Origin: an uncultured Rickettsiales bacterium
GTDB lineage: Bacteria; Pseudomonadota; Alphaproteobacteria; Rickettsiales; CANDYO01
Reading direction: 5' to 3'
NCBI GenBank assembly: GCA_964627795.1
Contig: CAZVLF010000003.1
Span: forward strand, 742 to 64,741
DNA: 64,000 nucleotides
How positions within the stretch are numbered: the first letter of the stretch is position 1; every line of letters starts with the position of its first letter. The notes beneath the pieces were generated by a model, which was not told the origin of the DNA, did not search any database, and saw only the letters and a list, made by a program, of their open reading frames with translations. This document shows positions 22,547-23,026 of the stretch, in pieces. Position numbers and translations under genes: made by a program.

Positions 22547-23026
22547 TTAGTAGTCTGTATCAACGTTATCACCAATTAATTTTAAGGTATAATCGATGTC
22601 TAGAAATTTAATATCATTTGAAATGATTTTAATAGAATTAAGAGGATAGAAATTTACAAGATCTAGTTGTTTTTCAATAATCTTGCTGCAATGATTTAGC
22701 ATAGAATAAACTGATTCTCTCTGTCCGTAATCCAAATCTAATCTTTTCAATATTGGGCTCTTCCAAATATTTAGAGAATCATAAATGAAATTCTGAATTT
22801 CTGGCCCAGACTCCATTATATAACTTATTAAGTCATTCATATCAGTAAAAAATATTGATCTCTCAAAATTATTGGTAATTTTATAACCAATAATTTGAAT
22901 TATATTTTCCACAAATCTTGCTTGGTAAGAAGTAAACCCAAGTGATAGAGCCATTTTTTGAATTTCAGTATATTCATCATATGAATATGTTCTGGTGATT
23001 TGATTCGCAATGTCATTATCGGGCAT
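22547..23026 (-). CDS. Hypothetical protein (orphan), ends LKLIGDNVDTDY
   Basis: 159-aa open frame in a gap between convergent genes; no domain recognised. Confidence 0.65.
   Translation of the reverse strand: MPDNDIANQITRTYSYDEYTEIQKMALSLGFTSYQARFVENIIQIIGYKITNNFERSIFFTDMNDLISYIMESGPEIQNFIYDSLNIWKSPILKRLDLDYGQRESVYSMLNHCSKIIEKQLDLVNFYPLNSIKIISNDIKFLDIDYTLKLIGDNVDTDY

Follow-up and report, generated by a model that had tools for sequence, protein, structure and literature searches.

Serralysin proteases and family I.3 lipases (PrtB/C/G, AprA, PrtA, LipA, TliA and PML) are exported by the PrtDEF, AprDEF, LipBCD and TliDEF systems. A Gly about 15 residues from the end of the serralysin/lipase-type signal was reportedly described by Omori et al. 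in 2001. The substrates of the Prt, Apr, Lip and Tli systems carry VTLIG or VTLVG and an acidic-hydrophobic extreme end (PMC3430570, PMC7745013, PMC2642768, PMC4604771). The last 20 residues of type I secretion system (T1SS) substrates are rich in D and poor in K, R, E and P (PMC8861453). For the T1SS substrates of Rickettsiales the signal lies in the last ∼50 residues and is defined by composition only, being rich in LDAVTSIF and poor in KHPMWC (PMC3417381, PMC4315096). In the last 25 residues of known effectors of alpha-proteobacterial type IV secretion systems (T4SS) there are three or more H/R/K residues and the charge is +2 or higher (PMC3814349). The Dot/Icm systems (type IVB) of Legionella and Coxiella use acidic C-terminal E-block signals in which position −3 or −4 is often hydrophobic; hundreds of unrelated effectors carry them, membrane proteins among them (PMC3814349).

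Prediction of Rickettsiales effectors is difficult. For T1SS and T4SS the signals are known by composition or charge only, and uncultured lineages are closed to genetics. A positional mark that is enriched where lineage-specific proteins end, and that orthologues keep although their tails have diverged, would provide prior odds that a given orphan is exported.

The window, that is the whole stretch of 64,000 nucleotides that was analysed, belongs to an uncultured Rickettsiales bacterium; it is AT-rich (30% G+C) and contains nuo genes, tlc, ankyrin genes and numerous orphans. A preliminary description had listed eight C-terminal strings in it sharing a hydrophobic-x-Gly element and a short tail as a candidate export tag. 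We report here that the motif as described cannot be told from chance within the window, that a stricter form of it is enriched at the ends of non-conserved proteins in related genomes, and that the resulting module is closest in architecture to the PrtD-type T1SS signals.

C-terminal ends in the window

All eight strings of the preliminary description were found at the places it had given (Table 1), but two of them, at 56023-56076 and 8010-8063, are not the ends of intact ORFs, and its list of carriers had missed three fibre-like genes and an IS5-family transposase. The fibre-like trio (34037-36254) has one conserved family end and was scored as one event.

Table 1. Features of the window and C-terminal ends with the loose or the strict form of the motif.
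Position	Strand	C-terminal end	Gene or ORF	Form and tail
785-2449	-		methyl-accepting-chemotaxis-like protein, 554 aa	
8010..8063	-	MMVG-LSFEDSSSSKQEY	free-standing 17-codon ORF between nuoE and the ankyrin gene	strict
8169..8231	-	LPIPG-EDFLREINLEFFSTI	646-aa ankyrin protein, 8169-10109	loose; acidic tail
10564-11582	+	YLG + 11 residues	IS5-family transposase in two frames	loose
12199-13620	-	...KTKRNSLER		strongly basic tail
22547..22585	-	LKLIG-DNVDTDY + stop	159-aa orphan, 22547-23026	strict; 7-residue acidic tail
32904..32954	+	VYLVG-IFAENNKYMLI + stop	676-aa IQ-motif (Pfam) membrane/coiled-coil protein, 30924-32954	strict
34037-34087	+	...TISG-NSPDNSIFANYT	fibre-like paralogue 1	loose
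35156-35209	+	...VLAG-IDPCDTIFNYQCA	fibre-like paralogue 2	loose
36201-36254	+	...IING-VNPCNTEFANLCT	fibre-like paralogue 3	loose
47677..47724	-	EALG-ICSIFDNPLLS	740-aa ABC exporter-like protein, 47677-49899	loose; family-specific end h-x-G-[IV]-C-x-h-D
54519..54563	-	NLTG-LLCHNECKAI	146-aa orphan, 54519-54959	loose; non-acidic tail
56023..56076	+	VVG-SLNSDSINDDSEES	in frame, right behind the TAA of ORF 55699-56022	strict; acidic tail
56175..56237	-	IKAAG-IINDEPLFGVAGIAI	437-aa orphan, 56175-57488	loose; acidic tail

The loose motif was taken as a hydrophobic residue (including A, Y, W and C), any residue and Gly, followed by a tail of 7-15 residues. It holds about 2 bits (2.2) of information and is present at 19.8-21% of arbitrary positions, so that about one protein in five carries it by chance. 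In the window it was found on 9 of 15 orphan-like and 4 of 38 core proteins, with an internal background of 19.8%, and collapsing the paralogues gave 7/13 against 6/40 (p=0.009). This p value does not hold up because the motif was picked post hoc, after seeing the data. Some comparable motif, from a family of ∼87,000-105,000, was at least as enriched in 1000 out of 1000 random sets of 13 C-termini, and the same was true of 1000 out of 1000 permutations of the labels. The loose motif ranks 116th among the comparable motifs of the window. From the window alone the loose motif is thus indistinguishable from a post hoc pattern; the preliminary description had itself warned of low information content and a possible chance origin. 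The loose form is also present on proteins for which export is surely out of the question, as the IS5 transposase shows.

Only four of the eight listed strings fit the strict form defined below, two on intact proteins and two as possible relics. The convincing instances are the ends at 22547 and 32954; the listed ends that are not strict match the loose form only, and the end at 54519 is most likely a chance match. The window carriers have acidic tails. Applying the definitions derived from the related genomes back to the window gave 5/13 against 5/38 (p=0.10) and 2/13 against 1/38, counts which are underpowered.

The 159-aa orphan ending at 22547 is a singleton in a search of 5.8 billion proteins. 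Its codon usage is gene-like, there is a promoter-like site at 23089-23061, and a search for terminators around the gene (22300-23200) found none. A 133-aa ORF after slt in the related genome G785 was considered as a homologue and rejected as not homologous. Searches of the related genomes G785 and G786 for homologues of the 646-aa ankyrin protein and of the 437-aa orphan likewise found none. The ankyrin protein starts with MKRKSEEPEHIGKRLRVDEE, which resembles a bipartite nuclear localisation signal, and a long acidic Ser/Glu-rich stretch follows.

The strict end at 56023-56076 belongs to a region (55221-56076, forward strand) made up of two ORFs in different frames, 55221-55685 and 55699-56022, then a TAA and 17 codons with the tag. 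This looks like a decaying gene within an orphan island (54519-59020), and the tag is possibly the former end of that gene, the stop not being taken as read through. The 17-codon ORF at 8010-8063 has a stop immediately upstream and no larger open frame, and is either a relic or a chance occurrence.

A stricter form of the motif in related genomes

Two related metagenome-assembled genomes from NCBI, G785 and G786 (1.10 + 1.27 Mb, 2.37 Mb in all), were reached via NuoD homologues of 85-89% identity; MurE is 59-60% identical, and the family comprises five genomes. ORFs of at least 100 aa were compared by BLAST with the other genomes and with the window and sorted on this basis into conserved and non-conserved, and coding potential was judged by codon usage. 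The comparator genomes were covered to 79% (G785) and 90% (G786), and the classification is thus one made on incomplete genomes.

The loose motif, fixed before the relatives were looked at and used unchanged, ended 25.4% of the non-conserved and 19.8% of the conserved proteins (OR 1.38, p=0.0095), with the same excess in singletons. As a shared tag the loose motif is mostly noise at this odds ratio, and the part of the earlier proposal that stands is a sharpened form, [LIVMF][LIVMF]G (hhG) followed by 7-15 residues. This strict form ends 51 of 484 non-conserved proteins (10.5%) as against a rate of 4.5% in the interior of these proteins, a 2.35-fold excess (p=3e-8) that is visible in G785 and G786 each. 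Conserved proteins have it at 73 of 1407 ends (5.2%) against 6.1% internally. When the last 25 residues of each protein were shuffled, 22.1 ± 4.4 strict carriers were obtained compared with the 51 observed (z=6.5). The rate also follows conservation, being 10.5% for proteins without a homologue, ∼7.5% below 50% identity and ∼4.5% above.

The use of internal positions as the control matters here. In G785 and G786 (loci L037-L171) conserved proteins systematically have C-termini that, compared with the rest of the protein, are rich in K (1.44x) and poor in Gly (0.78x) and Pro (0.70x), a bias that the non-conserved proteins do not have. Much of the contrast between orphan and conserved proteins arises because the conserved C-termini are depleted in this way, and a comparison of orphan with housekeeping ends therefore gives a spurious enrichment of Gly and Pro unless internal positions serve as the control.

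The excess is tied to the order, the anchor and the position of the residues. At the C-termini of non-conserved proteins no excess was found for Ghh, hGh or polar-polar-G, for A, P, S, N, D, E, K or T in place of Gly, or for tails of 0-6, 16-24 and 25-33 residues behind the anchor. The histogram of tail lengths peaks at 6-15 residues and the excess fades when the test window is shifted inward. An enrichment of the Gly position, which the preliminary description had put forward as a check, is thus seen for hhG with 7-15 residues, the other anchors being flat. The residue right behind the Gly is variable.

Requiring h-x-G with 7-15 residues and a net-acidic last 15 residues gave 13.8% against 5.2% (OR 2.9, p=4e-9), in both genomes and in strict singletons too; conditioning on acidic tails was a choice made after inspection of the data. 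The comparison of orphan and core C-termini by a motif scan, also suggested earlier, had a divided outcome. The unconditional discriminative de novo scan of the relatives' C-termini gave nothing of family-wise significance (FWER 0.20), whereas the scan of 104,580 motifs in acidic-tail proteins gave a best p=2.8e-8 (FWER 0.005), nearly all of its top matches having a hydrophobic residue at −1/−2 of a Gly, in windows 5-17 from the end. The latter scan is an independent recovery of the pattern first described. In the relatives the carriers are acidic among the non-conserved proteins but not among the conserved ones. Over their last 15 residues the carriers average a charge of −0.46; their tails are poor in K and R, and the proteins are acidic overall and mostly leaderless, 16% having an N-terminal hydrophobic segment. 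The earlier proposal that unrelated leaderless proteins share one Gly-anchored end is borne out in the relatives, where the enrichment is confined to non-conserved proteins.

At the extreme end, [DE]L was found in 5.8% against 1.3% in the relatives, a four-fold difference, and [DE] followed by 1-4 hydrophobic residues in 11.6% against 7.6% (p=0.009), although only in a minority of carriers. Anchor and acidic-hydrophobic end occurred jointly in 7.2% against 2.8% (p=6e-5). The pair [FLI][VAI] at the extreme end was not enriched in the relatives.

Four other sources of the signal were rejected. Gly codons are not forced by terminator hairpins, as the hairpins lie downstream of the stops; hidden paralogy fails as singletons have an equal excess; spurious ORFs fail as the signal is stronger after the coding-potential filter; and local composition alone fails at z=6.5 over the shuffles.

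The Gly might merely cap the last hydrophobic strand or helix ahead of a floppy acidic tail in young proteins, without being a signal. A low-confidence AlphaFold2 model (pLDDT 54) of the 159-aa orphan agrees with this in that its last helix stops exactly at G152 and is followed by a coil tail, and the low information content of the motif and the compact, K-rich, Gly/Pro-poor ends of conserved proteins point the same way. Such a boundary would, however, not favour Gly over the other breakers and caps (P, N, D and S), for which there is no excess; conserved proteins with acidic tails show no excess either, and the preferred tail length is narrow. We consider a purely structural boundary quite unlikely.

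The excess is small, amounting to ∼30-45 proteins over the two genomes. The strict mark in G785 and G786 is weak and low in information but statistically real, and it is tied to position, residue order, Gly and protein class. A pattern that resembled chance inside one 64-kb window was visible only in related genomes, which is a lesson of method.

Retention among orthologues and homologues

G785 and G786 have 187 reciprocal-best-hit pairs with identity below 30% over the last 20 residues. In these pairs the two partners share the mark far beyond what independence would give (OR 15, p=2.5e-6); for orthologue pairs with an overall identity under 45% the OR rises to 32. Three families were traced into three to five genomes, and in each of them the anchor is kept and the tails differ in sequence and length. 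The ends of the first family are ACNLLG-IVNSEVEA, ACEFLG-ITDAIEISVEN, ECEYLG-ITTHQADNSYENHS, LCEYLG-LVEHPIG and AIAFIG-LMAIEVNYFYDSLT, and those of a second family are NFFAG-QDNFNHEET, VDKIG-DFTNYAAEF and NFLIG-ENGFYPDDPC. The third, referred to as the ABC740 family after the 740-aa protein of the window, ends in ...G-[IV]-C-x-h-D, the orthologue ends being FSG-VCIFDV in G786, FIG-NVHTDPSEA in G785, and LYG-VCLADE and LYG-ICLTDE in G789. An anchor kept between orthologues with diverged tails suggests selection, which also speaks against the structural boundary discussed above.

The 676-aa IQ-motif protein is not a strict orphan, having 14 homologues at E<1e-10 among 1.84 billion representatives. 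These are 28-38% identical and align only over the N-terminal 300-450 residues, with variable middles, and the HMMER alignments end well short of the C-terminus. The mark is retained nonetheless: 13 of the 14 homologues have hydrophobic-Gly with a tail of 8-17 residues and a hydrophobic extreme end.

Given these results the possibility can be weighed that chance and analysis choices produced the pattern, through a post hoc list in the window and, in the relatives, through ORF calling, classification on incomplete genomes or conditioning. The loss of the window-only statistics after correction, the null unconditional scan and the 79% and 90% coverage of the comparator genomes are what such an origin would lead one to expect. 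Against it, the loose motif had been fixed beforehand and was replicated in the relatives, the strict form stands out from both the protein interiors and the shuffles with clean controls of order, anchor and position, the signal holds in both genomes, in singletons and after the coding-potential filter, and the homologues that keep the mark came from an unrelated database search. An origin in chance is very unlikely in our judgement.

The ABC740 family is a divergent TMD-NBD ABC family of 740-870 aa (47677-49899 on the reverse strand of the window; L176 1423-3738 and 3888-5132; L178; L147:2686-5067; L053:10317-12929) that is conserved across the bacterial family, with tandem copies in G789. 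Pfam and NCBIfam recognise the NBD only, and over their full length the proteins weakly resemble MsbA and a peptidase-domain ABC exporter. The linkers behind the NBD defy alignment, but the family shares the extreme end h-x-G-[IV]-C-x-h-D. An exporter with a substrate-like tail of this kind might be a pseudo-substrate.

Comparison with type I secretion systems

A PrtD-type T1SS ABC exporter (TIGR01842, 627-748 bits, NCBIfam cut-off 510) was found in 5/5 genomes of the family (a set that does not include the window's own genome), and the cut-off was reached in 0/14 control genomes. A HlyD-family adaptor protein (HlyD_3) adjoins prtD in G786. Three non-conserved genes bearing the tag lie 4-9 kb from this prtD-hlyD operon (G786 contig 4, 113412-125279; L075, L076), and they encode an 879-aa orphan, a 403-aa TPR_12 protein and a 224-aa orphan.

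The C-terminal module of G785 and G786 is best read, by analogy and with slightly less than even confidence, as an uncleaved recognition signal, probably for export, and as a variant of the PrtD-type T1SS-like signals. The module is made up of a hydrophobic residue or two, the Gly and a tail of ∼6-17 residues that is K/R-poor, net-acidic and often has an acidic-then-hydrophobic end. It marks fast-evolving, mostly leaderless, acidic, lineage-specific proteins, as judged from one Rickettsiales family, and its presumed function in export would be that of a C-terminal recognition signal which is not cleaved. The closest known architecture is the PrtD/AprD/LipB-class signal, with its hydrophobic five-residue motif ending in Gly and its extreme acidic-hydrophobic motif. 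As in the Prt, Apr and Lip systems, the predicted uncleaved signal is at the extreme C-terminus of leaderless proteins, and a PrtD-class ABC exporter and a HlyD partner are encoded by the Rickettsiales family. The differences are that the anchor is degenerate (any two of LIVMF), that the tail is strongly acidic and variable in length, and that RTX GGxGxD repeats are lacking, these being found in only 3/484 non-conserved and 2/1407 conserved proteins and in none of the window. Whereas the Prt/Apr/Lip systems serve a single enzyme family, the carriers here range over unrelated orphans, ankyrin and TPR proteins and a number of membrane proteins. The mark would tie the AprD/PrtD-type pump of the family to a class of substrate.

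The carriers also resemble Ehrlichia TRP47/120/32 and Ank200 and Orientia Ank in being leaderless, acidic and lineage-specific, those proteins being host-directed T1SS substrates, but the latter are without any defined positional motif. PMC3417381 prints the ends of four Ehrlichia T1SS substrates, and the Gly-anchored form fits only one of them (TRP47). The LDAVTSIF content was 57% in window orphans against 51% in core proteins; as a discriminator the composition rule was rejected, the relatives giving 51% for orphans against 53% for conserved proteins.

The mark is also found on polytopic membrane proteins, namely the ABC740 family and a membrane family present in five genomes, and on the N-terminally anchored 676-aa protein. 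Membrane-protein carriers are unlikely as T1SS cargo, and the occurrence of the mark on them and on an ABC exporter's own end keeps both a T4SS signal and a docking or processing element without an export role in play. The latter could be a ligand of a PDZ-type or C-terminal protease, a pro-tail cut after the Gly or a partner-binding peptide. Prc and CtpA cut C-terminal extensions of ∼8-16 residues off FtsI and pre-D1. Conservation on membrane proteins and on the cytoplasmic end of the exporter would be natural for such an element, and the hydrophobic extreme ends (...MLI, ...IAM, ...MAM, ...YAM) are like PDZ ligands. Most carriers are, however, leaderless and soluble and so beyond periplasmic proteases, the residue behind the Gly is variable, and no candidate reader was found; an element of this type seems unlikely to us.

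Comparison with type IV secretion and sorting signals

Were the tail instead a translocation signal of the rvh T4SS, read by the coupling protein and with membrane-anchored carriers extracted as in Legionella, the membrane-protein carriers would be handled more plausibly than by a T1SS. Acidic C-terminal signals of this kind are known in Legionella and Coxiella, and like the Dot/Icm signals the present ends are C-terminal, acidic and poor in basic residues. The Gly anchor is, however, not described for Dot/Icm signals and no EExxE is present here (0 of the 15 orphan-like proteins of the window have an E-block in the last 30 residues). Moreover the rvh system of Rickettsiales is of type IVA, for which the known alpha-proteobacterial signals are basic (PMC3814349). 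The window carriers have 0-3 H/R/K residues and charges of −1 to −5, outside the alpha-proteobacterial type IVA (S4TE) range. Readings of the ends as basic T4SS-type tails or as E-blocks were rejected on this charge and motif content. No link to VirD4 was found, and an rvh signal in place of a T1SS signal is accordingly not a likely explanation.

LPXTG, PEP-CTERM and GlyGly-CTERM resemble the mark as short signatures, often with Gly, on many unrelated proteins of one lineage. They need a transmembrane helix and a basic cluster behind the signature plus an N-terminal Sec signal, whereas the tails here are 6-17 residues long, acidic and K/R-poor, and an N-terminal hydrophobic segment is seen in few carriers. 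The length and charge of the tails exclude a tripartite sorting signal.

Returning to an export signal, it is possible, though short of probable, that this deep-branching Rickettsiales family has a secretion signal definable in sequence (hhG and an acidic tail of 6-17 residues) and read by a non-RTX PrtD-type T1SS or by the rvh T4SS. Equally tentative is the associated suggestion that the predicted signal is common to soluble orphans, ankyrin/TPR proteins and even membrane-anchored proteins. If true, Rickettsiales would gain their first positional consensus for an effector export signal, and effector repertoires would be readable straight from metagenome-assembled genomes.

Other features of the window

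Relatives of the IS5 transposase with 77-95% identity are found on short metagenome contigs (L148-L152). The methyl-accepting-chemotaxis-like protein is conserved in G785 and G786 (31-35% identity); such a protein is uncommon in Rickettsiales and suggests that a motile or extracellular stage exists. The protein encoded at 12199-13620 and its homologues (G786_C3|46010-47884 and G785_C11|19026-20489) all have strongly basic tails, those not given in Table 1 being ...SRGNSGRGV and ...SKNIRQH. These tails hint that the C-termini include a second class, one that is basic and would in that case be T4SS-like.
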